Part shown: positions 17,494 to 52,813 of the stretch, in pieces
Layout: each line of letters begins with the position of its first letter
Position numbering within the stretch: position 1 is the first letter of the stretch
Assembly (NCBI GenBank): GCA_964529715.1
Contig: CAZGXI010000023.1
Span: forward strand, 130-64,129
Source of the DNA: an uncultured Anaerolineae bacterium
Lineage (GTDB): Bacteria; Chloroflexota; Anaerolineae; Aggregatilineales; Ch27
Direction of reading: 5' to 3'
Length of the DNA stretch: 64,000 nucleotides
Program-made: the position numbers and the translations under genes
The notes under the pieces: model-generated
Seen by the model: only the letters and a program-made list of their open reading frames with translations
What the model was told of the DNA's origin: nothing
Databases searched by the model: none

Positions 17494-17510
17494 GGTTGTG
17501 TTTTCCCGAA

Positions 17511-17930
17511 TCAATTGGCGCAGGTGCCGAACAAGATGATCTGTGTACCGCTGCCGTCTTCCGCCCGATCCGCCGACCATTCGGCCTGGGCCATGCGGAA
17601 GCCGAGATCGCCGCCCGCCATCGCCCGCTCCAGGTAGTCGCTCGTCTGCTGCGCATACCACGCGCGGACGGTCGCCGGATCGTCGGGCGAATGGAGGACG
17701 AGCACGGTGTTGCCCATGCCGAACTCGGTCAGAAAGTTGTGGACGCGCGAGACAACCCCGGCGTTCGGATAGATCGGCAGCCGCTGGCTCAGCGAAGCGT
17801 AACACACCCGATCAACGGCGAAGATCGCGCCGCCGATGCAAACCAGCACCAGCGCGACCACCAGTCCGCAGCCGATCAGGGTGCGCGGGACTTTGAATGT
17901 TTTCACCACCAATATTCTCCTGAAACCCAA
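17511..17930 (-). CDS. Small membrane-anchored hypothetical protein
   Basis: N-terminal TM helix followed by a short extracytoplasmic domain. Lies between add and yitJ on the same strand. The start codon is uncertain. Confidence 0.65.
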   Translation of the reverse strand: MGFRRILVVKTFKVPRTLIGCGLVVALVLVCIGGAIFAVDRVCYASLSQRLPIYPNAGVVSRVHNFLTEFGMGNTVLVLHSPDDPATVRAWYAQQTSDYLERAMAGGDLGFRMAQAEWSADRAEDGSGTQIILFGTCAN

Positions 17931-19027: not shown

Positions 19028-22000
19028 CTATCCTTCGTCCAAAATCTGTTCCAAGCGATCCACGCCGGTGCTGTAATACTTCGCCTCCGGGTGATGGACG
19101 ACAATGGCCGCCGTGCTCTGTTCCGGCACGAGCTGGTAGGCGGCGGTCAGGGTCATGCCTAGGTCGCTCATTGCCCCCGGCAGCAGCCGGAACACGATCT
19201 CATGCTGGGCCAGGTCCGGGCAGGCGGGATAGCCCCAGCTATAGCGTTTGCCCTGTTCCGGTGCCAGGCCCAGTTCACGACGGATGTGCGCATGGACGTA
19301 GTTGGCGGTCGCCTCGGCGGTTTGCACGGCCAGTCCGTGAAAGAAATACGCTTCGGTGTAGCCGTCGGCGCCTTGCAGGCGGTCGAATTCCTCGGTCGCG
19401 CCTTCGCCTACCGTGACGACCTGGAACGCGGCCACGTCTACCCGGCCATCGTCGGCGGGCAGAAAGTAGTCGCTGAGGCACAGGAAGTCGCCGGTGGCCT
19501 GGCGCGGGAAGGTGAAGCGTGCGAACTCAACGCGCTCTGGGGCCTGCCCATTTGCCGCCGCGAAAGGTCGCCAATCCCACACGATCAGATCGTCGCCGTC
19601 GCTGTTCACCGGGAAATAGCCGTACACGGCCTGGGGGCGCAGCGTTTCGCGGCGCAAGGCTTCCCTTTGCATCCGCGCCAGCCGCGTCTCGAACTCGGCT
19701 TGCAGCTTTTCCCACTCCGACCCGTGCGCGTTCTTTGCGCCCCAGGAAAGGCGGTATAGTTCCGGTTTATCCAGGTGAGTGAAGACCATTTCCAGCGGCA
19801 TCGCATGGATCGTCTTGCTGCCCCAGAACGGCGGCGCTGGGACGAAGGGCGCGGGCTGTACGGCGCTGCCCCGTCCGACGGGGCGTTCACGCTTGCGGCG
19901 GGTGGGTTTGCCCTGATCCGCATAGGCTTCGTCAATGATCTCGGCGACGAAGGTGTCTCGCCTGGCCGGGTCGGCCAGGGTATCCATGACCGAGAGGCCC
20001 TCGAAGGCATCCTGGCAATAGAACACGCCCGGTGCATAAGGCTCGCCGGTCTCATCCAGAAAGAGGATGCGCCGCCCGAACTTGCGGTTGATCGCCGCGC
20101 CGCCGACCAGCACCGGGAACGTCAGGCCGCGCCGGGCCAGTTCGTTAACCACCAGCGGCATTTGTCTGGATGTGCTGACCAGCAACGCGCTCAGGCCGAT
20201 GGCGTCGGCGTTGACCTCGACGGCCTTCTCGATGATCGTGTTGGCGGGCACCTGTTTGCCCAGGTCGTGCACGGTGTAGCCGTTGTTGGCGAGGATGGTC
20301 TTGACCAGGTTCTTGCCGATGTCGTGCACGTCGCCGTAGACCGTTGCCAGCACCACGACGCCTTTTGTCACGCCCTCCACGCGGTCCATAAACTGTTCCA
20401 GGTAGCCGACGGACTTCTTCATCACCTCGGCGCTTTGCAACACAAACGGCAGGATCAACTCGCCCGCGCCGAACTTGTCCCCGACTTCCTTCATGGCGGG
20501 CAGCAGGACGTTGTTCAGCACGCCGACGGCGTCCTGGCGGGTCAGGCAGTCGTCGATAAGGGCTTCGACGCCCTCCTTCTTGCGGTGGACGATCTGCCAG
20601 TGGAGCGCCTGTTCGGCGGTCATGCCGGCGGTGGGGTCTTCGACTTCTTTTGCCCCGGTCTGGACCTGGTGCTGCTGAAAGTACTGGATGAAACGCGGCA
20701 GGGCGTCGGGGTCGCTGTTGAAGATCAGGTCTTCGGCCAGCTTGCGCTGTTCGGTAGGAATTTCGGCGTAGGGTGTGATGTGTGCCGGGTTGACGATAGC
20801 CATGTCCAGGCCGGCCTGCACCGCGTGGTAGAGGAAGACGCTGTTCAACACGCCGCGCGCGGCTTCGTCCACGCCGAAGCTGACGTTGCTGACGCCGAGC
20901 GAGGTCATCACGCCGGGGAGATGCTGCTTGATCAGCCGGATCGCTTCGATGGTTTCAATGGCGCTGTTGCGCAGTTCTTCCTGTCCGGTTGTCAGGGGAA
21001 AGGTCAAGGTATCGAAGATCAGGTCTTCGGGCGAGAGGCCGTAGTCGTTGACGGCGATCTCGGTGATGCGTCGGGCGATCTCGAACTTCTTCTGGCGGGT
21101 GTGGGCCATGCCCTCTTCGTCGATGGTCATGGAGAGCACGCCCGCGCCGTACTTCTTTGCAATCGGAAAGACCCGGTCGATCCGTTCGCGTCCGTTTTCC
21201 AGATTGTTGCCATTAATGATGCCCCGGCCCGGATAGACGGCAAGCGCGGCCTCGGCCACTTCTGGCTCGGTCGTGTCGATGATCAGGGGCACATCTACCG
21301 CCAGGGCCAGTTTTTTCACCAGCGTGCGCATCTGGTGGGCCTCATCACTGCGTTCGGTGAGGGCCACGCCCACATCCAGCATGTGCGCGCCGTTATCGAC
21401 CTGCTCACGCGCGATTTGCACGATGCTGTCGTAGTCGTCTGCCAGCAGCAGGCGCTTGACCTTGCGGCTGCCCTGGCTGTTTACCCGTTCGCCGATCAGG
21501 GTCGGGCCGGGATTCTGCACCATTGGCACAGCGCGCATGTTGCTGGACGCCTGGGCCACGTGCTCTGGTCGGCGCGGGGTGGGGGGGCGAACCTCACCCC
21601 CTGGCCCCCTCTCCGTAAACAGAGAGGGGGAAGCGGCAGGATGTCCGTGCACTTTTTGGTACAGCAGGGCGATGTGCTCTGGGCGGGTGCCGCAGCAGCC
21701 GCCCACGACGTTCACGCCCCAGCGGGCGAACTCTGCCACCATGTCGCTGAACGGGTCTGGCTCCATCGGGTAGACGGCCTCGCCTTCGACGTTGATTGGC
21801 AGTCCTGCGTTCGGCAGGACGCTGATCGGCAGGGTGCTGTGCTCCACGAGATATTGAATCGGCGCGCGCATGTGCTCCGGCCCGGTGGAACAGTTGAGGC
21901 CGATCACGTCGATGGGCAGGGCTTCCAGCGTGGCGAGGGCGCTGCCGATGTCTGTGCCAAACAGCATCCGGCCTGAGGTATCCAGCGTCACCTGTACCTG

Positions 22001-22612
22001 CAAGGGGATGCGCTGGCCGGAGTCTGCAAAGTAGCGGTTGAGGCCCACGACCGCCGCCTTGACCTCCAGGATGTCTTGGCTGGTCTCCACCAGCAACAGG
22101 TCCGCGCCACCCTCGACCAGCCCTTGTGCCTGCTCGTAGAACAGGTTGGCCAGCTCGTCGAAGGTGATGTCGCTTAACTGCGGGTCGTCGCCGCTGGGCA
22201 GCTTGCCGGATGGCCCGATGCTCCCGGCGACAAAGCGCGGGATGCCCGTCTCGGCGGCGAAGCGGTCACAGACGCGCCGGGCGATCTGCGCTGCCGCGCG
22301 GTTGATCTCCAGCACGCGCTCGCCCAGGCCGTAGTCGCCCAGGGTGAGCCGGTTGGCCCGGAAGGTGTTCGTCTCGATGACCTCTGCCCCCACGGCCAGG
22401 AATGAGGCATGAATCTCCTCGATCACGTCCGGGCGGGTGATGGACAGGTAGTCGTTGCAGCCGTTGTACTGTTCGCCGCCGAAGTCGTCGGCAGATAGAT
22501 GGTAACGCTGGATGCTGGTGCCCATCGCGCCGTCGAACACGACGATGTGATCGGCGATGGCGTCCAGATAGCGTCGATTGGTGTACGTGCGGTTCGCGTG
22601 GCGGTGGGTCAT
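19028..22612 (-). CDS. metH: B12-dependent methionine synthase
   Basis: DGAMGT, GLNC, GGCCGT, pterin domain IGERVNSQGSRK, B12 motif GDVHDIGKNLV, activation domain RYSWGYPACPDL. SD AAGGA lies upstream of ATG 22612. Confidence 0.98.
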   Translation of the reverse strand: MTHRHANRTYTNRRYLDAIADHIVVFDGAMGTSIQRYHLSADDFGGEQYNGCNDYLSITRPDVIEEIHASFLAVGAEVIETNTFRANRLTLGDYGLGERVLEINRAAAQIARRVCDRFAAETGIPRFVAGSIGPSGKLPSGDDPQLSDITFDELANLFYEQAQGLVEGGADLLLVETSQDILEVKAAVVGLNRYFADSGQRIPLQVQVTLDTSGRMLFGTDIGSALATLEALPIDVIGLNCSTGPEHMRAPIQYLVEHSTLPISVLPNAGLPINVEGEAVYPMEPDPFSDMVAEFARWGVNVVGGCCGTRPEHIALLYQKVHGHPAASPSLFTERGPGGEVRPPTPRRPEHVAQASSNMRAVPMVQNPGPTLIGERVNSQGSRKVKRLLLADDYDSIVQIAREQVDNGAHMLDVGVALTERSDEAHQMRTLVKKLALAVDVPLIIDTTEPEVAEAALAVYPGRGIINGNNLENGRERIDRVFPIAKKYGAGVLSMTIDEEGMAHTRQKKFEIARRITEIAVNDYGLSPEDLIFDTLTFPLTTGQEELRNSAIETIEAIRLIKQHLPGVMTSLGVSNVSFGVDEAARGVLNSVFLYHAVQAGLDMAIVNPAHITPYAEIPTEQRKLAEDLIFNSDPDALPRFIQYFQQHQVQTGAKEVEDPTAGMTAEQALHWQIVHRKKEGVEALIDDCLTRQDAVGVLNNVLLPAMKEVGDKFGAGELILPFVLQSAEVMKKSVGYLEQFMDRVEGVTKGVVVLATVYGDVHDIGKNLVKTILANNGYTVHDLGKQVPANTIIEKAVEVNADAIGLSALLVSTSRQMPLVVNELARRGLTFPVLVGGAAINRKFGRRILFLDETGEPYAPGVFYCQDAFEGLSVMDTLADPARRDTFVAEIIDEAYADQGKPTRRKRERPVGRGSAVQPAPFVPAPPFWGSKTIHAMPLEMVFTHLDKPELYRLSWGAKNAHGSEWEKLQAEFETRLARMQREALRRETLRPQAVYGYFPVNSDGDDLIVWDWRPFAAANGQAPERVEFARFTFPRQATGDFLCLSDYFLPADDGRVDVAAFQVVTVGEGATEEFDRLQGADGYTEAYFFHGLAVQTAEATANYVHAHIRRELGLAPEQGKRYSWGYPACPDLAQHEIVFRLLPGAMSDLGMTLTAAYQLVPEQSTAAIVVHHPEAKYYSTGVDRLEQILDEG
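21592..21631 (+). repeat. CCTCACCCC...CCCCCTCTC/GAGAGGGGG hairpin repeat inside metH
   Basis: CCTCACCCCCTGG-CCCCCTCTC-CGTAAACA-GAGAGGGGG. Perfect 9-bp stem, 21605-21613 with 21622-21630. Confidence 0.75.
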
Positions 22613-22629
22613 AAATCGCATCCTTTGGA

Positions 22630-24379: not shown

Positions 24380-27300
24380 ATGAGGGGGAATACGTCACGA
24401 AGGGCGCTGGCGATCTTGCTGGCAGTGTTGAGCCTGTTGCCTGCCAATGTGGGTGCCCAGGGCACGCCGGATGCGCAGCGCATGGCCCTGGTGAGCGAAA
24501 TCGGCGGCGTGGCGCGGGCGGTGGCGGCGCTGGAGGACGGTTTGCTGCTGGCGGAAGGCGAGTCGCTGGTCCGGCTGGACGGCGCGGGCAGGGAGATCGG
24601 GCGGGCTGCACCGGGGCGGGGAGCAGTGCAGGACCTCGCTGCGCGCGGTGGGGCGGTTTACGCGCTGACCGAAACGGGCCTGTCCGTCCTTGACCTGGAT
24701 TCCCTGGCGGAGCGCGCTTTTTTGCCGGGCGGGGGGCAGGCGCTTGCCGTCACCGACCGGGCGATCTACGTGGCAGCGCAGCGGGCGGGGCTTCGCGCGG
24801 CGCTGATCGGTGCGGATGGGCTACCTGGCGGCTGGCAGGCTATTCCCTCCTCTGATGGGGCTGCTGTAGACATAGATGCCGACGCGGCGGCAGCGTACCT
24901 CTATGTGGCGCTGGGCGAAGGGGGGATCGGCATTTATGCCCTGAGTGATCCTGCTGTCCCAGCCCTGGTCCACCGGATCACTGATGTCGGCGCGATCCGG
25001 GCTGTCGATGTGGACGGCGCGCGGCTGTTTGCGGCAAGTGGCCACCGCCTGCACGTTTACGACCTGTCGGGGCCGACACAGCCCGTGCTGGCCGATAGCT
25101 ACGATCCCCTGCACGACGCGCGCGGGCTGGTGCTGCGCGGCGAGTGGGCCTACGTCGCGGACGCGGCGGGCGGGTTGAAGCGGTATGTCTTCGACAGCCT
25201 GACCGCCGTTCGCTTTGACCGCGTCGTCTGGCAGGGAGAAGCCTATGGTGTGTTTGACGATGGGCGCTATCTGTATCTGGCTGCCGGCTGGGACGGCGTG
25301 ATCGCACTCGACGCGCCGGATCGGGACAGGCTGGAGGCACGCGGGCGTGTGGTGCTGCCGGGGTTGGCGTCGGCAGTGGTAGTAGACGGGGCCGGAGGCG
25401 CGCGGCGCGGGCTGGCAGCCCTGGGCGCGGAAGGGGTGGCCGTCATCGACTGGCGGGACATCAATGCGCCGCGCCTGGGGGCGGTGTTGAACCTGGGCGG
25501 CGCGGTGCGGGCGGTGGCCGTGCGGGATGCAGTCGGCTTTGCGGCGGTCGAGGGCGTGGGGTTGGCGATCCTGGGGCTGGCAGACGTGAACGCGCCCACG
25601 CTGCTGGCGACCGTGCCCATGCAGGGCGCGCCGCAGTCGCTGGCCCTTGGCGGCACGCTGGTCTATGCAGCAGCAGGGGACGGCGGGCTGTACGTGGTGG
25701 AGACGATCCGGCCTGCCGAGGCGGCCATCGTGGGGCGGCTGCTGCCGCCGCGCGCCGATCAGCCTTTTCTGCACGTCGCACTCGAAGGCAAACGGGCTTA
25801 CATCAGTACGGGAGACGCGCTGCTGATCGCCGACGTGGACAGCGGTCAGACGCCGCAGGTATTATCGACACTTTCGATTCCGGCAACGGCAGCGGCGGCG
25901 CGGGCGTTCATCGCCTATGCCGTTGGCCCACGTTCGCTAACCACCGTCAATGGCGGTTCTAGCAACGCGCCCGAAATTTTACATACTTACCGGGCTATCG
26001 ATTCGATCTGCGCGGTGTTGTCTGGTGGGGAGTACGTCTGGCTGGCCGGGCAGGGTGATGGCGCGCAGGCGGCGTTCCTGGGGCTGAGTGGGTTGGGGGC
26101 TGCGGAAGCATGGACTGCCGGCTATGGAGAAGGCTGCTCCCTGGCGACCGGACAGGGCGGCCTGGCATGGCTGGCTGCCGGATCGGATGGCCTGATTGCA
26201 CTGCGTCCCGGTGGAGCATCTCCGGTGAGGCCTGCTGCTCTTGGCGGGGAAACCATCCACGTGCTGGCGGACGGTCGGTTGCTGATCGGCGGCGGGACGG
26301 GATGGGGCATCCTTGACCCGGCGGGCCAGGACGGCCACTGGGTGCGCGGCGAAGCGCCGGGCCGGGTCGCCGGGCTGACTGGGGCAGGGGACTCGATCTT
26401 CCTGGCGCTGGGCGAGGGCGGCGCAGTGCGCTACGGTCCGGTTGACCAGGGGGAGTCGTTCCGATTGGTGGCCCACTGGTTGCCAGGAGCAGCGGACGGT
26501 TCTGCGCGCGGCGTGACGGCAGAGGGGCAGTTTGTCTATGTGGCCGAAGACGGGCCGGGAGCAGGCGGGGCGCTGCGGGTCTTGACGGCAGAATCGCTGC
26601 AGACGGTGACGACGGTTCCCTTGCCGGGGCGGGCACAGGCCGTCGCCCAGCAAGATGGGCTGGCTTACGTGGACTATGGGCGGGATGGGCGCGGCGGGCT
26701 GGCCGTGATCGACGTGCGGACGCCGACGGCAGGATTGCGCGCAGTTGGATCAGCCGCTTTCCCGGCGACGGGGCTGGCGCTGACAGCCGATGGCAGAATT
26801 GGCTACGCGGTGGGCGGCACGGCGCTTACCGTCTTCGACCTGTCCGGCTGGCCAGAAGTTCGCCCTCTGCGGGTTGTGAGGCTTTCCAGGTCGGTGAGCC
26901 GGTTGATCCTGGACGAGGCGGGGCGTCGCCTGTTGGGATTTGCGCCGGGGCAATCCGTGCTGGTGCTGCGCTTGGATGATCCCACTCTGCCGGTTCCGGC
27001 AGCCATTCTGGAGACGGCGGCCCAGGATGTGGCAGTGTACGGCGACGCGCTCTATCTGGCGGTGGGGGAGGGCGGTTTACAGGCGGCGAATCTGGCCTTG
27101 TTGGAAAACCTGGCTACCACTGTGCGGACGCTCAATGGCGCGCCGACGGCAGCCCTGTGGACGGACAGTGGGATGCTCTATGCCGCAGGGGCGGCCTCTC
27201 TACGCGCCTATGATCTATCTGATCCATTTGCCCCGGCACAGACAGCCACACTGTCTCTGGAGCGGGGCGACGCAGCGCAGGCGCTGGTCGGGCGGGCCAC

Positions 27301-28504
27301 GCGGCGAGACGGGCGTTGGCTGTACGTGGGGACGGCGGCAGGGGTGTGGGCGGCGCATCACACGCCGGATGGGGCGTTATTGGCAGTTAGGGTTGTTGAT
27401 CTAGATGATTTGTTGGCCGTCGGCGGTGGCTGGCTGTACGCCCGTCGAGACGCGCATACTCTGGCCCTGGCTTCGCTGCTGGATCTGCCGCAGCCTCAGG
27501 GGGCGTTTGCCTATCCCCTGCCGGAGATGCCCCGCATTGCTGCTGTCGTGGTGTGGGAGGGGCGCGTCCTGGTCGGTGGACCGGCGGGCCTGGCGGCGTT
27601 GGAATGGGACGCCGTTGGGAGTGCTGCGCTGCCCGTGCTGTTGGGTCAGATAGACGGTCTGCCCGGCGAGCCTGCTGCCGTTTGGGGCATGGCTGACACG
27701 GTCTGGGTCGCAGCCGGAGCGGGCGGTGTGTGGCGCATCGACGTGCGCGATCCGGCGCTTCCCCGCCTGGAAGCAGTTATCTCAACGGCGGGCGAGGCGC
27801 GCGGGCTGGTGCTGTCGCCGGCGGGGGATCGGCTGGCAGTCGCAACCGGGCAGTGCGGCGTCCGCCTGCTGGACGTGACCGTCAATCCGCCGCGCGAGAC
27901 CGGCTACTGGCAGGGCGCGGCGGCGGCGGATGTGGCGGCAGCCGGCGACCTCTACGCGGTCGCCGGGGAAAACGGCCCGGTTTTACTGCGGGAAGCGCCA
28001 GATGTTCCAGCCGTGTTGCCGCCCATGCCGTTCGACCCCACGCCGCCGGATAGGGCGGATGGTGTAAATGGCCCGGTGACATTAAGCTGGTTGCCGCAGC
28101 CCGACCCCTGTGATGGGATCGCATACGAGGTCAGGCTTAGCGTTGGGGGTGCTTCTCTGGAGCGCGTCGCGGCGACGACGGAACCCCGGCTTGTCCTGAG
28201 CGATCTGCCGTCCGGCGTGGCGGTTCGCTGGCAGGTGGTCGCCGTTGACCGCCAGGGCGATGCAGCGGAAGGACCGGTCTGGGAATTCTATACCGGTGCG
28301 GCATCTCCGGCGACGGTCCAGCCAATCTGGAGTGGGGCGCGGCTGGCCCTTCCGACACCGACGTTTGCGTCACCGGTGGCGCCGGGGATTGCCCCGGCAG
28401 TCGTAGACGTGGGGCTGGGCTGGGTGCTGCTGGTTGGAGGGATTCTGCTGGAACTGGCGCTGTTGGCGCTGTGGTGGCGCTGGCGTCGGGCGTTGCGCAG
28501 GTAG
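24380..28504 (+). CDS. Large cell-surface LVIVD-repeat beta-propeller protein with C-terminal Fn3-like domain and TM anchor
   Basis: Signal peptide, many YVA..GL.I.D.S.P..P repeats, Y.WQVVAVD..G....GPVWEF Fn3-like segment, terminal TM helix plus WRWRRALRR. Confidence 0.82.
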   Translation: MRGNTSRRALAILLAVLSLLPANVGAQGTPDAQRMALVSEIGGVARAVAALEDGLLLAEGESLVRLDGAGREIGRAAPGRGAVQDLAARGGAVYALTETGLSVLDLDSLAERAFLPGGGQALAVTDRAIYVAAQRAGLRAALIGADGLPGGWQAIPSSDGAAVDIDADAAAAYLYVALGEGGIGIYALSDPAVPALVHRITDVGAIRAVDVDGARLFAASGHRLHVYDLSGPTQPVLADSYDPLHDARGLVLRGEWAYVADAAGGLKRYVFDSLTAVRFDRVVWQGEAYGVFDDGRYLYLAAGWDGVIALDAPDRDRLEARGRVVLPGLASAVVVDGAGGARRGLAALGAEGVAVIDWRDINAPRLGAVLNLGGAVRAVAVRDAVGFAAVEGVGLAILGLADVNAPTLLATVPMQGAPQSLALGGTLVYAAAGDGGLYVVETIRPAEAAIVGRLLPPRADQPFLHVALEGKRAYISTGDALLIADVDSGQTPQVLSTLSIPATAAAARAFIAYAVGPRSLTTVNGGSSNAPEILHTYRAIDSICAVLSGGEYVWLAGQGDGAQAAFLGLSGLGAAEAWTAGYGEGCSLATGQGGLAWLAAGSDGLIALRPGGASPVRPAALGGETIHVLADGRLLIGGGTGWGILDPAGQDGHWVRGEAPGRVAGLTGAGDSIFLALGEGGAVRYGPVDQGESFRLVAHWLPGAADGSARGVTAEGQFVYVAEDGPGAGGALRVLTAESLQTVTTVPLPGRAQAVAQQDGLAYVDYGRDGRGGLAVIDVRTPTAGLRAVGSAAFPATGLALTADGRIGYAVGGTALTVFDLSGWPEVRPLRVVRLSRSVSRLILDEAGRRLLGFAPGQSVLVLRLDDPTLPVPAAILETAAQDVAVYGDALYLAVGEGGLQAANLALLENLATTVRTLNGAPTAALWTDSGMLYAAGAASLRAYDLSDPFAPAQTATLSLERGDAAQALVGRATRRDGRWLYVGTAAGVWAAHHTPDGALLAVRVVDLDDLLAVGGGWLYARRDAHTLALASLLDLPQPQGAFAYPLPEMPRIAAVVVWEGRVLVGGPAGLAALEWDAVGSAALPVLLGQIDGLPGEPAAVWGMADTVWVAAGAGGVWRIDVRDPALPRLEAVISTAGEARGLVLSPAGDRLAVATGQCGVRLLDVTVNPPRETGYWQGAAAADVAAAGDLYAVAGENGPVLLREAPDVPAVLPPMPFDPTPPDRADGVNGPVTLSWLPQPDPCDGIAYEVRLSVGGASLERVAATTEPRLVLSDLPSGVAVRWQVVAVDRQGDAAEGPVWEFYTGAASPATVQPIWSGARLALPTPTFASPVAPGIAPAVVDVGLGWVLLVGGILLELALLALWWRWRRALRR

Positions 28505-42189: not shown

Positions 42190-43305
42190 TCACGACGCCG
42201 GGATGTCCAGCGCGAATTCCCAGGGGCCGACATGCCCGCCGGAGTCCTGCCCCGCCCGCTGCAACCGTTCGACCCTTAACGTCCAACGCGCAGCGTGGAG
42301 GTCGTAGGGGGCCGGAAAATCCAGCATCATGCAGCGGCTTCCCCCGACGGTTTCGGCGGTCGGCGCAATGCCCAGGCTGCTCAGTGCTTCTACACGGGTT
42401 TCGCCCATGTCCAGGACGGCCATCGGCAGCCAGGCGGGTTCATTGTCCGGCGGCGTGAAGCACAGGCGTGTTCTGGTCATCGACGGGGTGATGGAGACCC
42501 GTTCCAGCGTCATGGGCAGCCCATTTGCCTCGACGACCGTTCCCGGCGTCAGAACGACCGCCGGGATGAACGGCAACGTGAAGTCAAAGATAAAAGGGCC
42601 GATGGGTTCGCCGTTCGGCGCTACCGTCGCGCCGCCGATATTTCCGGCGTCGTCCGGCGTCGCGGTCGTCGGCGGGATGGCACTCAAGATGACCGTCACT
42701 TCGAGCCGCAGGTCCAGGCTCTGTGGGTTATTTTCGATGATCGTGGCGTCGAAGTTGAATGTGCCCGACATGGACCACTGGTAGATGAAACTGATGGTGG
42801 GTTCGCTGCCGTCGTCGCTGCGCCCGCCGCCACCACCGCCACCGCCGCCTCCTCCGCCGAACGTCACCGGGAACTCGCGGCCCTGGCGGTCGCGTAGGTG
42901 GATGGCGTCGATACTCAGCGACGGCATGTAAGGCGCGGCGCTTTGTCCGCTCGCCCCGAAGTCCACCGTGATGCGGTGTGCGTCTGCATAGGCCCAGTTC
43001 AGCGTAAAGGTGAGGCCGTTGCGGGTTTCGCTGAGGCCGAGCGGAGTCACGAGCTGGTTTTCCTGAGCCTGTTCCAGGCCGGGATCGAAGCTGTTGAACT
43101 GGTGAAAGGCGTATGCGCCTGCGCCAAGCAGCAGCGAGGCTACCAGTAAGGCCGCCGCCCAACTGAACCGCCGCACTCCCGTGAACCGTCGTCGGGGCTG
43201 CGGGGTTTCGATCCGCACCTTGAGGCGAGGCCACAGATCGGGTTGGGGAGATGTCCGCTTTTCGGCGATATGTTGCAACACCTGCCGGGCCAGTTTCTTG
43301 TTCAT
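42190..43305 (-). CDS. Putative membrane anti-sigma factor (DUF4179-like) with poly-Gly loop
   Basis: Start overlaps the ECF stop (ATGA). PDLWPRLK, single TM helix, extracytoplasmic beta domains (FTLNWAYADAHRI, GPWEFAL). Confidence 0.75.
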   Translation of the reverse strand: MNKKLARQVLQHIAEKRTSPQPDLWPRLKVRIETPQPRRRFTGVRRFSWAAALLVASLLLGAGAYAFHQFNSFDPGLEQAQENQLVTPLGLSETRNGLTFTLNWAYADAHRITVDFGASGQSAAPYMPSLSIDAIHLRDRQGREFPVTFGGGGGGGGGGGGRSDDGSEPTISFIYQWSMSGTFNFDATIIENNPQSLDLRLEVTVILSAIPPTTATPDDAGNIGGATVAPNGEPIGPFIFDFTLPFIPAVVLTPGTVVEANGLPMTLERVSITPSMTRTRLCFTPPDNEPAWLPMAVLDMGETRVEALSSLGIAPTAETVGGSRCMMLDFPAPYDLHAARWTLRVERLQRAGQDSGGHVGPWEFALDIPAS

Positions 43306-43898
43306 CGTTCCCCCCAGCGACTTTCTGGCGCGGCGTCCCCCGACCAACGGTGCAGCAGCATCCGCAACTGTTTGCGCGCGGCGTGCAGCCGCCACCGCAC
43401 CGTGCTGGGCGCGCAGTCCAATTGATCGGAGATTTCCTCGTCGCTCAGATCGAAGTAGTAGCGCAAGACGACTGCCGCGCGCTGCTCCGGGGAGAGGCGG
43501 GACAATGCCTGTTCGACAGCCTGCTCGATTTCGTCCATCTCGACCGCGTGGTCCGGGTCAGGGCCGGGGTTGGGGAACAGGTCGGTGAAGGCAGCGTAAG
43601 CGTCGTCCGTGTCGAAGGTGTCTAGCGAAAGATCGCGCTGGTTACGCCGGGCCGCGCGTACAGCAGCGTTCACGACGCTGCGCATGAACCAGGGCGCGAA
43701 CGGGCGGTTCAGGTCAAGGTGATCGATGGATTTGTAAACTTGCAGAAAAACATCCTGCGCCACGTCCTCAGCCAGCGCCGCGTCCCAGGTGATGAGGTAG
43801 GCCGCGTGGATGGCCCGCGCCTGGTACAGCCTGACGAGCGCCGCCAGCCCGCCGATGTCGCCGCGCTTGAGGCGGCGAATCGCCTGTTTTTCGTCCAA
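43302..43898 (-). CDS. ECF RNA polymerase sigma factor
   Basis: AEDVAQDVFL, FAPWFMRSVVN (region 2), LSPEQRAAVVLRYY...STVRWRLHAARKQL (region 4). Confidence 0.95.
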   Translation of the reverse strand: MDEKQAIRRLKRGDIGGLAALVRLYQARAIHAAYLITWDAALAEDVAQDVFLQVYKSIDHLDLNRPFAPWFMRSVVNAAVRAARRNQRDLSLDTFDTDDAYAAFTDLFPNPGPDPDHAVEMDEIEQAVEQALSRLSPEQRAAVVLRYYFDLSDEEISDQLDCAPSTVRWRLHAARKQLRMLLHRWSGDAAPESRWGER

Positions 43899-45523: not shown

Positions 45524-45558
45524 AAAAAGCTCGCAGGCCGGCTGCCCAACCTGCGAGC
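45524..45558 (-). terminator. Intrinsic terminator after the multiheme cytochrome genes
   Basis: GCTCGCAGG/CCTGCGAGC 9-bp stem followed by TTTTT on the minus strand. Confidence 0.7.
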
Positions 45559-45598
45559 CATGCACCGCTGCGCGGGCGTTTTGTTTGCGGGCGCACGG

Positions 45599-47608
45599 TT
45601 ATCCTTCGTCGATCTGCGCCGGGGTGGATTCTCCGGCGGGTGCGCCGGCCTGAATCCACGCGCGCAGCAGGTCCATCTGGTCGTCTGTCAGCCGGGCGAA
45701 GTGCCCCTGGCCCAGAATCTCGACGATCCGGCTGCGCTCCGGCGCCTCCGGCACGATCACGGGGCCGCTGGTGCTGCCGGCCATCAGGGCGTCATAAGTG
45801 GTTATGTTGAGGCCCCGGCTGGCCGTCGTGGGGCCGTGACACCTGCCGCAAGCGTCTTGTAGGATCGGCTGAAGCGTCTGATAGGTGAGGGCGGGTGGCG
45901 GCGCTGCTTCGCCGACAGGCGCACCTGCTGCGATCCACTGGCGTAGCGTGTCCAGTTCTTCGTCGCTGAAGCGCGCGAAGTGTCCCTCGGAGAGCACCTG
46001 GACGATCCGGCTTTCGTCCGGCGATCCGGCCACGATCACGGGGCCGCTTGAGCTGCCCGCCATCAGGCTATCGTAATCGGTCACACGCAGCCCGCGCGTT
46101 GGGTTGTCGCCGTGACAGCCACCGCAACGGCTTTCAAACAACGGTTGGAGCGTCTGGTAGGTGAGAGCCTGTCCGGTAGTTTCGGCGGGCGGCGCAGCGG
46201 GTCCCTCTTCTGGCATAGTGGCCTCTTCGGCGGGCGGTGCTTCCTGCAGGCCGAGTTGAATCGCCAGCGTGGGCGCGTCGAAGCCGCCGAAGCGCCAATC
46301 TACCCCATGGCACATGCTGTTGGAACAAAAGCTGCTGTCGTCTGTGCCGCCGGGATTGTTCACCGTGTGACAGTTGGCGCAGGTCTGGTCGAATTCGTTA
46401 TGGTGGCGGCTGATCCAGGTCGAGTCCAGATGCGACTCAGGCTCGATGCCGGTTGCCAGCAGCAGCGTCGGCTCAATATCGCCCGGACGCACGACGACCG
46501 GGATGGAGTGACAGAGATTGCATTCCAGCCGGACGGCTTCCCCTTCGGCGCTGAAGTGCTGGCCATCGTGGCAGCGGAAGCAGCCGGGCCAATCGCGGTG
46601 CCCGACGTTGTTGGGGTGGGTCTGCCAGTCTAACTCTTGCGCCGGGTAGGTGTTTTGCGCGTAAGTTTCCCGAAGGGCAGTGATGGCATCGCCGACCTGT
46701 CCCTCATTTTCGGCGTAGAACGTGGGGAACTGGATGCGGTAGTAGGCTTCCAGTTCGGCAAACAGCGGTTCGGGGTCTTCGACTGAGGCATTGGCGCGCG
46801 TCAGCAGGTCTACGGCGCGTGCACGGATGAACGGGATGTCGGTCGAAATCTGCCCACGCAGCAGCAGCGAGTCGACTAAGTTGCGAGGGTTGTCCAGCAG
46901 ATGTGAGATGCGGTTGTGGCAGGTGATGCAATCCATCGTCTGGAGGGTGTACTGATCCAGGTTTTGAGTGTCTATTGTCGCGTTCTCGGCGACGTATTCA
47001 ATGGTCTGGCCGTCTGCCGTGTTGACGCGAATCCAGGGAATGTCCTGTTGCAGGGTGTCAGTGGCGATGAACTCGATAGCGTTTTCCACGTGCCAGTGAA
47101 TACCGCGTCCTAGTCCTTCGCGCTGGCTGCCGCCACCGGTGTGCATCAGCAGATAAACGTCGTAGCGTTCGTTGCGTTCACTCTCGGAAAAATGATTCAG
47201 CACGCGCAGGCTGTCATCGGAGAACTTCTCCGGAAAATGGCATAGTTCGCAGGTTTCGCGCGCCGGGCGCATGGAACTGACCATGATGGGATATTCGTAG
47301 TGGCCGGTGATGGTGTCGAACAGCAGGCGCATATGGCTGGTCTTGCGCACGAATTGCTCGATCAGTAGCCCTCGCCCGATGTGGCAGTCTACACACAGCA
47401 CGCGCGCATGGGGCGACACGCGGTAGGTGTTGTATTCTGGCGGCATGGTGTGGCAGGTGGAACCGCAAAAGTCCGGCGAGTTGCTGTATTCCCAGACGGG
47501 TGGGATGATCAGCAGCAGGGCGATAAATCCCACGACCACACCGCCAAAAAGGAGCGCCCGGCGGCGCGGACTCTGAGGCAGACGGAACATCTTACGGAGG
47601 CGGTTCAT
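45599..47608 (-). CDS. Membrane-anchored NapC/NirT-type multiheme cytochrome c with two C-terminal monoheme domains
   Basis: TM anchor, 8 CxxCH motifs (CVDCH, CELCH, CITCH, CFRCH, CNLCH, CANCH, CGGCH, CGRCH) plus CGSTCH and CSNSMCH. Confidence 0.92.
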   Translation of the reverse strand: MNRLRKMFRLPQSPRRRALLFGGVVVGFIALLLIIPPVWEYSNSPDFCGSTCHTMPPEYNTYRVSPHARVLCVDCHIGRGLLIEQFVRKTSHMRLLFDTITGHYEYPIMVSSMRPARETCELCHFPEKFSDDSLRVLNHFSESERNERYDVYLLMHTGGGSQREGLGRGIHWHVENAIEFIATDTLQQDIPWIRVNTADGQTIEYVAENATIDTQNLDQYTLQTMDCITCHNRISHLLDNPRNLVDSLLLRGQISTDIPFIRARAVDLLTRANASVEDPEPLFAELEAYYRIQFPTFYAENEGQVGDAITALRETYAQNTYPAQELDWQTHPNNVGHRDWPGCFRCHDGQHFSAEGEAVRLECNLCHSIPVVVRPGDIEPTLLLATGIEPESHLDSTWISRHHNEFDQTCANCHTVNNPGGTDDSSFCSNSMCHGVDWRFGGFDAPTLAIQLGLQEAPPAEEATMPEEGPAAPPAETTGQALTYQTLQPLFESRCGGCHGDNPTRGLRVTDYDSLMAGSSSGPVIVAGSPDESRIVQVLSEGHFARFSDEELDTLRQWIAAGAPVGEAAPPPALTYQTLQPILQDACGRCHGPTTASRGLNITTYDALMAGSTSGPVIVPEAPERSRIVEILGQGHFARLTDDQMDLLRAWIQAGAPAGESTPAQIDEG

Positions 47609-47774
47609 CGGCTTATCTCCCGGCTCACCGACGCAGCCGCCGCGCCAAATGCCCGGCGGTTGTTGTGTGTAAACATCGTCTACCTGACTGATGCAGGAAC
47701 AGAACACCCGCAGACATGGTGGCCTGCGGGTGTATCTGATCCAGAGGCCGGGCTGACGCCCGGTCTCCTGAATG

Positions 47775-49655
47775 CTATTCCCTGGGCGGGATGATGGTCG
47801 CGCCCGGAACAGGCTCGCCGGTCAGTCGCTCATAGCTGAGTTGCAGCAGCGACACGACGTAGCGCAGGTTGTGGATCGCCGACGATTCGACATCCGCCGT
47901 GAACTTGAAGTTGTAGACGGCGCCCTTCAGGTCCACACTGGGATTTTCCGGCAGTTGGAAGTAGGGATAGTGATCGAGCACGACCACGCCCTGGGCTTCG
48001 AGCGCGCTCTGGAGTACCGCGCGCAACCCGGCCACCTCGTCCTGGTTGGACTCGATGGCGCCGTCGCCGTCGTAGTCACGGCGGGCCTCGAAGGCAAAGC
48101 TCTCGGCGGCGTCGTGGCACTGCTGGCAGACGGCGACGTTTTCGGTCCCGTCTACCGGGCTGATCATGGCGAAGGTATGCTCGCCGACCGTCTCATGGCC
48201 GGGCAGCGGGTTTCCGTTGGCGTCCATACCGGGTGTTGGGGCCATGTGGCAGCCGATGCAGCTGTCTTCGACGACACGCCCGTGTGTACTGGTGGGCAGG
48301 GTCATTCCCCAGGTGTAGCCGCCGGTGGCGTTCATCAGTTCCGCCGCCGTCGAGTAGTGCGGCGTGCGGAGCGTTTCGCCTTCGACGGCAGCCACCGGTG
48401 CGGTGCGGGCGTTGTGGCAGCTCATACAGGTGGCCGCCGGCCCGGCGCCCGCGACTTCGATGCCGCCCGGCAGCAGCACGGAGTCAAACGTGCGGAGCTG
48501 GTTGGGGTTGGCGGCGTTGTGCGGGTCGTGGCAGACGGCGCAGGTGATAACCTGGTAGTTCGTCCGCGATTCTTCCGGCGGGATGCCCTGCGTGAAGTCG
48601 ATGTACCCGGCGCCGCTGTGGCAGCGCACGCAGTCGGTCTCTTCCGGCCCGATGGGATAGGTGAAGGCGCGGGCGTTCGCGGCGGCGTGTGCGCTGAGTT
48701 CCCATTGCTGCGGGAAGGTGTGGTACGGCTCTTCGGCGTGGCACTGGGCGCACGTGCCGTAGGCCAGCCCGCGGCCAATTGGCCCGGCCTGGCTGACGGC
48801 GCTTTCTTCTTCGTCATCCCCGCCTGCCGCTGCCGTCTGGTGAGCACCGCCCGGACCGTGACAGCTTTCGCACTGGATGTTCGCCAGGGCCGCAACCTGC
48901 GGGAACTCCGCCACCATCGCGTCCCAGTTGCCCGGTTGCAACACTTCTGGGAAGGTCCAGCCCGCTTCGGCGGCCACGTCGTCGAAGCCGCCGTTGACGG
49001 CTTCAGGCCGGTTATTGAACCCGGTGGTGTGGCACGTGATGCACTCGGCGCTGTAGTGATTGCTTACCAGGCCGTCGATGGCGCGCGTGAACATGGTCGC
49101 GTGGCCAGTGGCAGCCCAGGCGGCTGCCGTTTCTTCGTGGCAGCTTGAGCACTGGGGCGCTTCTGCTTCACCCGCGATGCCGCCCACGCCGACGTAGGTG
49201 GTGGCCGTGACGACCCACTCGGTTGTGGCAGTGTTCCCGGCCTCGTCCGTGGCGGTCAGGGTCAGCACATACTGCCCTTCCACGTCTGCCAGCCAGTGAG
49301 CAACCGTCTCGCCGCCCAGTTCGGCGGCGGAACCTGCCGGCACGGTCAGGTTCCAGGTGAAGGTAAACCCTTCGACGAGCGCCGCCGGCTCCTGGAAGTC
49401 CTCGATGTTCTCGACCATCATGTTGGGGTAGATGCCGTAGGGCAGGATGATCGCCTGCACGGGTTGTGTGGCGGGGTCCTGGCCTGCCGGGATCGCGTAG
49501 GCTTGTGCCGCGACGTAGGTTCCAATCCCGACGACGTTGGACGCCGTCGTGACAATCGGCATCTGCGGAATTTGCTCCTGGCCTGCCGCCCCCCACGCGG
49601 CCAGTGCCAGCAACAGCAACATACCACCGACAGCAAAAAGCGATTTATGCGACAT
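47775..49655 (-). CDS. Secreted nonaheme cytochrome c with an N-terminal PKD-like domain
   Basis: Signal peptide (AAG|QE), FTWNL...GQYVLTLTATD, 9 CxxCH motifs, C-terminal YNFKF...IHN.RY..SLL helix motif. Confidence 0.92.
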   Translation of the reverse strand: MSHKSLFAVGGMLLLLALAAWGAAGQEQIPQMPIVTTASNVVGIGTYVAAQAYAIPAGQDPATQPVQAIILPYGIYPNMMVENIEDFQEPAALVEGFTFTWNLTVPAGSAAELGGETVAHWLADVEGQYVLTLTATDEAGNTATTEWVVTATTYVGVGGIAGEAEAPQCSSCHEETAAAWAATGHATMFTRAIDGLVSNHYSAECITCHTTGFNNRPEAVNGGFDDVAAEAGWTFPEVLQPGNWDAMVAEFPQVAALANIQCESCHGPGGAHQTAAAGGDDEEESAVSQAGPIGRGLAYGTCAQCHAEEPYHTFPQQWELSAHAAANARAFTYPIGPEETDCVRCHSGAGYIDFTQGIPPEESRTNYQVITCAVCHDPHNAANPNQLRTFDSVLLPGGIEVAGAGPAATCMSCHNARTAPVAAVEGETLRTPHYSTAAELMNATGGYTWGMTLPTSTHGRVVEDSCIGCHMAPTPGMDANGNPLPGHETVGEHTFAMISPVDGTENVAVCQQCHDAAESFAFEARRDYDGDGAIESNQDEVAGLRAVLQSALEAQGVVVLDHYPYFQLPENPSVDLKGAVYNFKFTADVESSAIHNLRYVVSLLQLSYERLTGEPVPGATIIPPRE

Positions 49656-49761: not shown

Positions 49762-49958
49762 CACACAGGTCCTTTTCTGATTATAAAATGAGAATCCGGT
49801 GAGAGGCAAGCGTTTCATCGGGCCAATATCGGTGACATTTGTCCTGCATATGGCCTGACAAACCTCTTGCGGTTGGCAGCAGAGATGACGACAGGATTGT
49901 AGGATGTGGGAAAAATTCTCATGCGGCGCGACAGAGTCGCTGCCGCCCAGAGAGGGCT

Positions 49959-50714
49959 TCACGGCAGTGGGGCAGCCTGGCGCAGGGTGAAATCGACGAT
50001 CAGGGCATCCTGGGCGGCTTCCACCGCCAGCACGTCGATCTGCTCGCGCGGCCCGTATTCTCCCAGGCCGGTATTCAGGGCTGCGTTGACCATCGGGATT
50101 AGCGTTTCGTTGACGGCTTCGAGCGCCGGGCCGGGCGGGGAAATGCCGCCGATGGAAGCACTGGTCACGCTGACGGCGACCTGCCCATTCTGCACTGCCA
50201 GTTGCGCGGTGGCATTGACGCGCAGGATCAGGCCGAGCATGTGCAGGTCGGCGGTCAGAGTTGCGCCACCGGGGAGCAGGTCCAGGTGGACGTTGCTGGC
50301 GTTGGGTACTTCTGCCAGGAAGGGTGTGATCAGCGCATTGACTTCGGCCTCGCTGAAGGTCACGCGCGGCGTGATGCCGCTGCTGTCGAACGGCACGATC
50401 AGGTCGCCCAGGGCGTCGGTGTGGGCAGTGGCATAGGCGTCGGCGGTTTGCCGGATGTCGCTCAGGCGCAGGGTGGGGCTGGGCGTCAGAGAAGGTGTGG
50501 AAGACGGCGTTTGGAACGGGGGCAGCGTACTGAAAATCGCTGCCGCTGTCGGCGACAGGATGGTCGGCGTGGATGTGGGGAAAAAGGCGGCTAGCAGGGA
50601 GGACAAGGAGATCGTGTTGCTCCCTGATCCGAACCCGACGATGGCGCAGATGAGGGCAGCGGCAACCAGCAGCAGAAAGATCAGACCGAGCAGGACAGAG
50701 CGTCGCATAAGCAC
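49959..50714 (-). CDS. Membrane-anchored hypothetical protein with Ser/Thr/Pro linker
   Basis: N-terminal TM, SPTPT linker, VTFSEAEVN...beta-rich domain (DUF2993/LmeA-like, tentative). Confidence 0.75.
   Translation of the reverse strand: MLMRRSVLLGLIFLLLVAAALICAIVGFGSGSNTISLSSLLAAFFPTSTPTILSPTAAAIFSTLPPFQTPSSTPSLTPSPTLRLSDIRQTADAYATAHTDALGDLIVPFDSSGITPRVTFSEAEVNALITPFLAEVPNASNVHLDLLPGGATLTADLHMLGLILRVNATAQLAVQNGQVAVSVTSASIGGISPPGPALEAVNETLIPMVNAALNTGLGEYGPREQIDVLAVEAAQDALIVDFTLRQAAPLP

Positions 50715-50794: not shown

Positions 50795-52813
<2,019 letters not shown>

Follow-up and report, generated by a model that had tools for sequence, protein, structure and literature searches.

A two-gene multiheme cytochrome module of an Anaerolineae bacterium as a candidate quinol-to-envelope electron conduit

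Introduction

This study concerns two adjacent genes for multiheme c-type cytochromes, here called gene A and gene B, in a 64,000-nucleotide stretch of DNA from an uncultured Anaerolineae bacterium of the Chloroflexota (GenBank assembly GCA_964529715.1, contig CAZGXI010000023.1, positions 130 to 64,129). The whole stretch is referred to as the window, and positions are those of the window unless another locus is named. We propose that proteins A and B form a two-protein, porin-independent conduit that would carry electrons from quinol to the envelope of a monoderm-type Chloroflexota cell, and we put the probability of this reading, which is drawn from sequence, at about 0.55. An earlier note on this DNA had interpreted the pair as a quinol-to-surface route for extracellular electron transfer (EET), and as far as sequence analysis can tell, that interpretation is supported.

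Protein A Is Related to OcwA and OmhA

Gene A (47775..49655, on the minus strand, as are all features of the pair) encodes an exported nonaheme c-type cytochrome of 626 amino acids (aa). Nine CxxCH motifs are located at residues 169, 205, 262, 302, 342, 372, 410, 466, and 510; all 18 cysteines of the protein lie inside these motifs, and CxxCK is absent. The AlphaFold2 (AF2) model, with a predicted local distance difference test score (pLDDT) of 90.0 and a predicted template modeling score (pTM) of 0.84, begins with a signal helix and a beta-sandwich (approximately residues 40-152), continues into a heme core rich in loops, and ends in three long helices. The signal peptide (aa 1-25; 49581..49655) is a hydrophobic Sec-type N-terminus, modeled as a helix at residues 3-26, with a predicted cleavage site at AAG/Q. 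It is followed by an immunoglobulin (Ig)/PKD-like beta-sandwich (aa ~36-155; 49191..49550; modeled strands 41-152), for which Foldseek returned PKD, Rib, and Ig domains and a profile search returned a KIAA0319-like PKD domain. The nine-heme core (aa ~165-520; 48096..49163) is collinear with OcwA hemes 1-9 in HMMER and hhalign alignments, and Pfam Cytochrome_C554 spans its hemes 1-2. The C-terminal three-helix bundle (aa ~535-613; 47817..48053) comprises helices 537-554, 574-585, and 589-612, modeled with pLDDT >90, and contains a conserved H595-N596 motif. Motif count, AF2, and Foldseek therefore all agree with the earlier description of a secreted nonaheme protein with a PKD-like N-terminal domain and a helical C-terminus. 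Foldseek matched the beta-sandwich alone and returned no multiheme structure at E ≤ 0.001; since Foldseek is insensitive for loop-rich heme cores, the missing match is not evidence against a relationship with OcwA.

Two profiles of A were searched against the Protein Data Bank (PDB), namely A2, built from Chloroflexi only (65 sequences), and the broader A4, which adds distant homologues. With A2, OcwA (6I5B) was the first match (E 2.8e-11), and OmhA (6QVM) was found at E 2.7e-6. With A4, the values were E 4.5e-28 (101 bits) for OcwA and 7e-16 for OmhA, followed by lower-ranked matches to NrfA (E 7e-10), MtrA (6r2q_A; 7e-8), c554 (3e-6), and MccA (9e-6). OcwA and OmhA had been singled out beforehand as the proteins for comparison, and the outcome was positive: OcwA was at the top and OmhA second, both above NrfA, c554, and MccA, a ranking that reproduces the published clade of OcwA, OmhA, MccA, and c554. 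When the A family was aligned to a small OcwA-clade alignment with hhalign, a probability of 99.9% was obtained (E 8e-35, 272 columns). The alignments of A with OcwA are collinear at heme 1, hemes 3-4, hemes 5-9, and the helical bundle, including the GVHN motif (H595-N596). This profile evidence makes A a remote homologue of both OcwA and OmhA within the NrfA-c554-MccA superfamily.

6I5B is OcwA (TherJR_2595) of Thermincola potens, an experimentally characterized cell-surface terminal reductase with a nonaheme globular domain and a C-terminal three-helix bundle, in which a c554-like N-module is joined to an NrfA-like C-module (PMC6703420). The protein reduces Fe(III), shuttles, and electrodes (PMC6703420). 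6QVM is OmhA, its S-layer-associated counterpart in Carboxydothermus ferrireducens; both hosts are monoderm metal reducers in which these proteins are terminal reductases at the cell surface. Protein A shares with OcwA and OmhA the nine collinear CxxCH motifs, six distal histidines at equivalent positions, the three-helix bundle with GVHN, the c554-like N-module and NrfA-like C-module, and export in hosts without an outer membrane. In contrast to OcwA, A carries an additional N-terminal Ig/PKD domain, and OcwA is proposed to be fed via ImdcA, PdcA, and CwcA rather than by the product of an adjacent ImcH-like gene. The two also differ in family size. In a word-indexed search, a C-terminal fragment of OcwA, reconstructed from the HMMER alignment, matched five proteins, OcwA itself not being among them, so that the true OcwA clade is tiny, whereas the A family comprises 841 clusters. 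Nonaheme relatives of OcwA in Gram-negative bacteria had been noted previously.

Other multiheme families were considered and rejected for A. Membership in the MtrC/OmcA/MtrA decaheme group rests on local motif-level matches, such as PF22113 at residues 298-382 and a DmsE family match of 54.9 bits, below the cut-off of 192; the heme count of A is nine, and it is not accompanied by a porin gene. An NrfA-type nitrite reductase was likewise rejected, as CXXCK is absent and the NrfA match is confined to the C-terminal heme/helix module (E 7e-10). Neither A nor B attains any NCBIfam model, all matches being far under the curated cut-offs.

Protein B Belongs to the ImcH Branch

The open reading frame (ORF) listed for B covers 45599-47707, but homologues and a GGGAG ribosome-binding site place the true start at the ATG at 47608. 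The gene (45599..47608) then encodes a membrane-anchored ten-heme cytochrome of 669 aa that is of the ImcH type and ends in two PSCyt1 domains. Eight CxxCH motifs are accompanied by CGSTCH (CX3CH, residues 48-53) and CSNSMCH (CX4CH, residues 428-434); all 20 cysteines fall within the ten motifs, and CxxCK is absent. Both atypical motifs are invariant in 43 homologues (the first as CGxxCH), indicating that they are probably real heme sites rather than chance occurrences and that B is best read as a ten-heme protein. A single transmembrane (TM) helix (aa ~14-42; 47483..47569) is marked by a hydrophobic stretch, is modeled as a helix at 14-42, and aligns with the TM helix of NrfH. It leads into an NrfH/ImcH-like putative quinol-site module (aa 43-130; 47219..47482) with heme 1 (CGSTCH-T-M), hemes 2-3, K89, and Y104. 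The middle region (aa 131-470; 46199..47218) contains a beta-rich insert, a helical region, hemes 4-7, and the CX4CH heme 8, and was modeled with low confidence. PSCyt1 domain 1 (aa ~483-563; 45920..46162) and PSCyt1 domain 2 (aa ~575-656; 45641..45886; best stretch 620-663 in ORF numbering) are FoxE-like monoheme domains that match Pfam PF07635; an Ala/Pro-rich linker precedes the second. AF2 performed poorly on the heme regions of B (pLDDT 67, pTM 0.46), and no Foldseek match was obtained with this low-confidence model.

The N-terminus of B has a single solved relative, NrfH of Desulfovibrio vulgaris (PDB 2J7A/2VR0), which serves the NrfHA nitrite reductase as its quinol dehydrogenase and belongs to the NapC/NirT family. 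Residues 13-148 of B matched NrfH (2j7a_C) at E 2e-10, with the TM helix and the heme-1 C..CHxM motif aligned; hemes 2-3 are also common to both, and in both cases the gene adjoins a multiheme gene of the NrfA superfamily. The two differ in that B has ten hemes and NrfH four, that heme 1 is CX3CH in B and CXXCH in NrfH, and that the partner A lacks the CXXCK of NrfA.

A more precise fit is ImcH (GSU3259) of Geobacter sulfurreducens, an inner-membrane quinol oxidase required for high-potential extracellular acceptors. In the ImcH homologues described by Zhong and Shi, TM helices are followed by an atypical CX3CH, NapC/NirT-like first hemes, and six (5-9) CX2CH motifs (PMC6295460). The CX3CH of B lies six residues past the TM helix, as in this ImcH hallmark, and is followed by NapC/NirT/NrfH-like first hemes and six further CX2CH motifs in the same order. 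ImcH conserves E127, K173, Q179, and Y188 around the heme-1 ligand His137 (offsets -10, +36, +42, and +51). At these offsets B has N, K (K89), L, and Y (Y104), so that two of the four residues are kept, with the K/Y spacing of +36/+51 preserved; E is found at -13, H at +39, and an NrfH-like M at +2. In four diderm loci (L029, L036, L040, and L047), three-TM proteins of approximately 500 aa with seven hemes have E, K, Q, and Y at the exact ImcH offsets. In phmmer searches against these three-TM ImcH-type proteins, the N-terminus of B matched at E 1e-24 and its middle region at 1e-39 to 1e-50; the homology extends over approximately 420 residues. The homology of B to GSU3259 is transitive, running through these three-TM proteins and the literature.

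In contrast to ImcH, B has one TM helix rather than three, has N and L at the equivalents of E127 and Q179, and carries an extra invariant CX4CH heme as well as C-terminal PSCyt1 domains, of which B homologues have one to five. The ImcH homologues of Anaerolinea thermophila and Intrasporangium calvum also have one TM helix and are still placed in the family (PMC6295460), so B can be regarded as a one-TM subtype rather than the canonical form. Taken on these sequence features, B is a predicted ImcH-branch quinol dehydrogenase of a one-TM Chloroflexi subtype with a modified heme-1 pocket. The NapC/NirT-like TM protein with eight CxxCH and two atypical motifs that the earlier note described thus stands as to motifs, TM helix, and NrfH match; its family is given more precisely as that of ImcH.

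The Gene Pair and Its Variants

Genes A and B are arranged head to tail on the minus strand, with A upstream of B. The earlier note had asked about conservation of the pair, and the A-then-B order on one strand does recur: coordinates confirm it for nine loci (the window, L001, L003, L004, L005, L006, L083, L085, and L086), and at least nine further pairs of A and B matches are found on contigs of the same length. The A family gave 348 matches at E ≤ 1e-5 in a word-indexed search, mostly from Anaerolineae and Aggregatilineales, and the 841 clusters (50% identity) mentioned above were obtained at E ≤ 1e-30 in an exhaustive search. Homologues of A with 33-40% identity are found in Ignavibacteriota (Melioribacter, Stygiobacter), Calditrichota, KSB1, Verrucomicrobiota, Gemmatimonadota, and others. 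The B family gave 4569 matches at E ≤ 1e-5 among the candidates scored, typically of 555 aa with one PSCyt1 domain. B variants with at least two PSCyt1 domains, as in the window, accounted for 8 of the 13 contig-matched A/B pairs and for 10 of 107 others, an association that is confounded by relatedness; both of the "others" with at least two PSCyt1 domains that were checked also adjoined A.

Where B is not adjacent (L007-L009, L011, and L082 of Aggregatilinea lenta), A stands beside a divergent operon of two nonaheme cytochromes, which, where visible, also encodes a HydC/FdnI-type cytochrome b and so resembles a Cbc/CbcL-like quinol module. In L084, A, a Cbc/CbcL-like module, a one-PSCyt1 B, and another multiheme gene form one island. 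A homologues of diderms have three-TM ImcH genes (L029, L036, L040, and L047) or CbcL-like fusions nearby, and in L047 the ImcH gene is directly downstream of the A homologue. The likeness to CbcL/Cbc of Geobacter is thus found in the module of the loci without B and, in fused form, in some diderm loci; the module is missing from the window and is relevant here only as the alternative partner of the A family. The position of A beside ImcH-like or CbcL-like modules ties the family repeatedly to quinol oxidases used for EET in Geobacter.

Some further features of these loci were recorded. In many Anaerolineae, A homologues stand beside a Cbc/CbcL-like operon, as at L084 7001-15878, L081 259-4237, L082 5802-8875, and in L007-L009; the operon encodes nonaheme cytochromes of approximately 550-615 aa and 370-400 aa and a cytochrome b with a fused c-type domain. 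In Aggregatilineaceae-type loci, a membrane-anchored monoheme protein of 230-290 aa without a Pfam family is encoded directly upstream of A (L004 9150-9887, L085 3284-3976, L082 9169-9888, L007 9069-9878, and L008 9162-10019), possibly as a third component of those loci. In its place, the window has an unrelated gene for a non-heme 251-aa protein. Within the A family, some members (P0246, of 1946 aa, P0247, P0248, P0249, and those at L033 847-4914, with 18 CxxCH, and L022 9497-12733, with 26) either join two or three A-like nonaheme units in tandem or have many additional hemes, which suggests longer wires made from the same module.

Export and Cellular Location of A

Approximately 21 of the 105 full-length Chloroflexi homologues of A have a lipobox followed by an acidic Pro/Thr/Glu linker of 30-60 residues, and a lipobox with a long acidic linker is the usual design of monoderm surface lipoproteins. 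A different signal was found in the Fibrobacteres-Chlorobi-Bacteroidetes (FCB) group, in which 7 of 10 individually examined A homologues have a type IX secretion system (T9SS) sorting domain, PF18962, at the C-terminus above the Pfam threshold. These matches score 29-45 bits against a cut-off of 27 (L028 8586-11477, L029 9428-12166, L045 9677-11800, L050 9911-12058, L027, L047, and L017). PF18962 was present in 18 of 44 aligned A-family members, all of them non-Chloroflexi, and the carriers include Melioribacter roseus, Stygiobacter electus, a Caldithrix abyssi metagenome-assembled genome, and KSB1. Because T9SS cargo is delivered across the outer membrane, the A family would be extracellular in these FCB-group lineages, and the T9SS domains provide independent support for an extracytoplasmic or surface role of the family as a whole. 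In the literature searched, neither a T9SS sorting domain on diderm A-family members nor any T9SS-exported multiheme cytochrome was found described. For the Anaerolineales, porin-cytochrome complexes were not found in genomes, and the group is thought to lack a Gram-negative envelope (PMC7399161). By analogy, A of the window organism would be located at or in the cell wall.

Heme Pockets of A and a Possible Reductase Function

The similarity of A to NrfA, c554, MccA, and OcwA raises an alternative that we consider unlikely, although it is the strongest of those examined: A may be the catalytic subunit of a soluble-substrate reductase or detoxifier acting on nitrite, hydroxylamine, NO, sulfite, or tetrathionate, with B as an NrfH-like anchor, as in NrfHA and MccA. 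The N-terminal alignment of B with NrfH, including CHxM, would suit such an arrangement, and OcwA itself reduces nitrite and hydroxylamine in vitro, but its nitrite turnover is only about 1 per min (PMC6703420). The heme ligands of A were compared with those of OcwA, in which hemes 1, 3, 4, 6, 7, and 8 are bis-His, heme 9 is His/Met, and hemes 2 and 5 are five-coordinate under HH281/282 and HH380/381, respectively (PMC6703420). The nine heme motifs of A are conserved in most of 79 multi-phylum locus homologues, and 90 of 105 close homologues keep all nine. Eight non-motif histidines (185, 272, 323, 379, 433, 458, 493, and 595) are conserved in the same 79 sequences, giving eight invariant distal histidines for nine hemes; axial ligands in A are assigned from residue conservation only. 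The protein carries no catalytic signature, having neither CxxCK nor CX15CH nor a spare cysteine for a Cu site, and both A and B appear to have mostly His-ligated hemes, which speaks for a conduit.

A point in favor of a reductase is the pocket at heme 2. The positions of OcwA HH281/282 are Y311-H312 in the window A, and in the 79-sequence locus alignment, where 74 sequences contain heme 2, the pair is HH in 27 of these and YH in 25. Position 312 tolerates L, N, or Y while heme 2 is kept, which suggests a pocket residue rather than an obligatory ligand, and H200 co-varies with heme 2, never being His in homologues that lack it. However, heme 2 is absent from 9 of 65 Chloroflexi homologues, including that of the cultured Aggregatilinea lenta, and from 5 of 79 locus homologues, and A has no counterpart of the HH pocket at heme 5. 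We infer that most of A is a wire of bis-His hemes and that its single OcwA-like pocket, at heme 2, may be open but is dispensable. OcwA has such pockets and is nevertheless an EET reductase. Surface export of the FCB-group homologues by T9SS would also be an odd choice for an oxyanion reductase, and the partner genes are ImcH-like or CbcL-like EET modules rather than Nrf or Mcc accessory genes.

FoxE-Like Domains of B and the Direction of Electron Flow

The C-terminus of B matched FoxE (PDB 5MAB), the diheme Fe(II) oxidoreductase of Rhodobacter ferrooxidans SW2, at E 4.8e-6 with a single sequence and at 1.9e-4 with a profile, and both PSCyt1-like domains of FoxE align with the two of B. This opens the possibility, slightly less probable again than a reductase, that the pair works inward and that the quinone pool or an oxidase is supplied, through A and the FoxE-like PSCyt1 domains, with electrons drawn from Fe(II), a cathode, or a syntrophic partner. 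Among Chloroflexi, a precedent could be an isolate that we take to be Ardenticatena maritima. That isolate was reported with anodic as well as cathodic EET (Kawaichi et al. 2018). CymA-type and CbcL-type modules are likewise known from Fe(III) reducers and Fe(II) oxidizers alike, whereas Fe(III) reducers are the only organisms from which ImcH homologues are known to date (PMC6295460). The similarity to FoxE is weak, and the domains of B differ in being fused to a quinol dehydrogenase and in having an invariant GHF histidine where FoxE aligns Arg-Met. In the homologue alignment, this histidine (H543) is invariant and Met is not conserved in the PSCyt1 domains, suggesting bis-His hemes of lower potential. 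Reduction of menaquinone by Fe(II) would in addition be uphill, and neither oxidase nor carbon-fixation genes were found among the neighbors scanned.

Least probable, and improbable outright, is that B is a general quinol:cytochrome c oxidoreductase, a bc-type bypass feeding assorted enzymes or oxidases, with A a mere acceptor or capacitor without a dedicated extracellular role: the very large B family (4569 matches), whose members often stand alone, and the lack of a recognizable wall-anchoring motif in the window A would agree with this, but the B variants with at least two PSCyt1 domains specifically adjoin A (8/13 versus 10/107, confounded by relatedness), the A family is surface-exported in diderms, and its nearest characterized relatives are surface reductases.

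Proposed Electron Path

In the conduit that we favor, B would be anchored in the cytoplasmic membrane by its one helix and would oxidize menaquinol at the membrane-proximal heme 1 (CX3CH-x-M, with K89 and Y104 near), as NrfH and ImcH do. Electrons would then run through eight closely packed hemes of B to one or two PSCyt1 domains on Ala/Pro-rich linkers, and either these domains or the core of B itself would reduce A. The exported OcwA-type protein A, carried on its Ig-like domain, would pass the electrons to acceptors that are unable to enter the cell, candidates being Fe(III) or Mn(IV) minerals, humics, shuttles, electrodes, and partner cells. Quinol oxidation by B and electron transfer from B to A are suggested by the sequence relationships, and the direction of flow, the partners, and the acceptors are proposed by analogy on family precedent. 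The route proposed for Thermincola uses four cytochromes, ImdcA, PdcA, CwcA, and OcwA, and the present module would have to manage with two genes; speculatively, the extra hemes and tethered domains of B would be the obvious candidates to replace the intermediate ones.

A number of observations weigh against this conduit. A single-sequence phmmer search of A against PDB gave only a marginal match to MtrA (E 0.71); as profiles succeed where this search fails, A is to be placed as a distant member of the OcwA/OmhA clade. At heme 5, the HH pair that is invariant in the small OcwA clade is replaced by R-T in the window A and by S-T in the family consensus. Near heme 9, H458 of A is an extra invariant histidine where OcwA has Ser-Val-Met close to the heme-9 Met, and the His/Met site of OcwA is probably replaced by H458. 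The absence of the heme-5 pair and the change at heme 9 imply that the redox chemistry of A may differ from that of OcwA, and the open-looking, OcwA-like pocket at heme 2 could bind a small substrate. The window A has a plain Sec signal and no recognizable wall anchor. B departs from the ImcH quinol site by the changes E to N and Q to L. Finally, B-type proteins are approximately ten times as numerous as A and usually do not adjoin it, so B must have other partners as well.

Locus Layout, Transcription Signals, and Neighboring Genes

A promoter-like site, TTGCCT-18-TATAAT (49780..49809, minus strand), recognized purely as a consensus match (10/12), is located approximately 125 nucleotides (nt) upstream of gene A. 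The 166-nt spacer between A and B (47609..47774) is predicted to form two GC-rich hairpins directly 3' of the A stop codon, with a minimum free energy of -86.7 kcal/mol (z -5.0). Seven other A-B spacers of 100-375 nt (L001, L004, L005, L006, L083, L085, and L086) were folded, and GC-rich hairpins after the A stop were predicted in all seven, with z-scores of -1.0 to -3.6. Each spacer has one or two strong predicted GC-rich hairpins, and that of L005 has a classical U-tailed terminator. These hairpins suggest partial termination or transcript stabilization yielding more A than B. With such a structured spacer, A and B need not be equally abundant, and an excess of A would fit an abundant outer component served by a scarcer membrane enzyme. 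The terminator that the earlier note placed after the pair was located just 3' of B (45528..45559, minus strand); it is a strong intrinsic terminator with a 14-bp stem, nine GC pairs, and a TTTTT tail.

Apart from A and B, no ORF containing CxxCH is present anywhere in the 64 kb window, and the scan of neighboring genes gave no porin, no molybdoenzyme, and no known terminal reductase. These scans and the motif count bear out the earlier statement that no such gene and no CxxCK site is adjacent. The neighbors encode a membrane HdrD/DsrK-like Fe-S protein, a 251-aa LmeA-like membrane protein, a dihydrolipoyl dehydrogenase, an extracytoplasmic function (ECF) sigma/anti-sigma pair, and DUF1015, PHP, and DLH proteins. 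The Fe-S protein (50795-52813, minus strand; 672 aa; HdrD/DsrK/TmcB-like) combines a membrane domain at its N-terminus with two 4Fe-4S motifs and two CCG domains, and it adjoins the 251-aa TM protein (49959-50714, minus strand), whose LmeA-like match is weak. Both were rejected as parts of the module, and a functional tie to the pair is not supported: their synteny with it is confined to the closest relatives (L001, L006, and L086), and the other A-B loci lack them. The ECF sigma factor and the anti-sigma-like protein (DUF4179, with a 12-Gly run) are encoded at 42190-43898 (minus strand) between lpd and the DUF1015 gene; their absence from the syntenic L086 makes them look like a local insertion in the window.

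Farther away, a 1374-aa secreted protein with an LVIVD repeat is encoded at 24380-28504 (plus strand), in a region with a G+C content of 0.67-0.69 (approximately 0.62 otherwise) and a strong GC skew of 0.14-0.19. A homocysteine S-methyltransferase-methylenetetrahydrofolate reductase fusion (15613-17805, minus strand) adjoins a full-length B12-dependent methionine synthase (19028-22621, minus strand); these two belong to ordinary one-carbon metabolism and are given for context only.

Significance

Sediments, aquifers, anaerobic digesters, and bioelectrodes harbor Anaerolineae and related bacteria in large numbers. Multiheme cytochromes are plentiful in these organisms, and the molecular route of EET has not been defined for the phylum (PMC7399161). 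Both kinds of protein described here were already known, as were a one-TM ImcH homologue in Anaerolinea (PMC6295460) and Gram-negative nonaheme relatives of OcwA. In the literature searched, no paper linking OcwA with Chloroflexota was found, nor was a description of the A family paired with an ImcH-type protein carrying FoxE-like domains.

The pair joins two experimentally grounded EET components, the ImcH type of Geobacter and the OcwA type of Thermincola, in one small conserved module. OcwA-like nonaheme cytochromes form a large multi-phylum family rather than a rarity of a few Firmicutes, and some of them appear to be T9SS cargo. A wider and more tentative idea, to which we give clearly less credence than to the conduit itself, is that the A family, very large and so far unrecognized, is a sister group of OcwA acting across phyla as the terminal EET cytochrome, with only the export route varying with the envelope, and that in Chloroflexota one to five PSCyt1 domains act as swinging arms, so that two genes suffice. 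If this were true, monoderm Chloroflexota would rely for export on a Sec signal or a lipoprotein anchor and Ignavibacteriota, Calditrichota, and KSB1 on type IX secretion, and the PSCyt1 domains on an ImcH-like protein would replace a chain of periplasmic or wall cytochromes as membrane-to-wall shuttles. Cultured relatives hold parts of the system, an A homologue in Aggregatilinea lenta and a one-TM ImcH homologue in Anaerolinea thermophila, and the A-B pair offers a testable candidate for mineral or electrode respiration in Chloroflexota.

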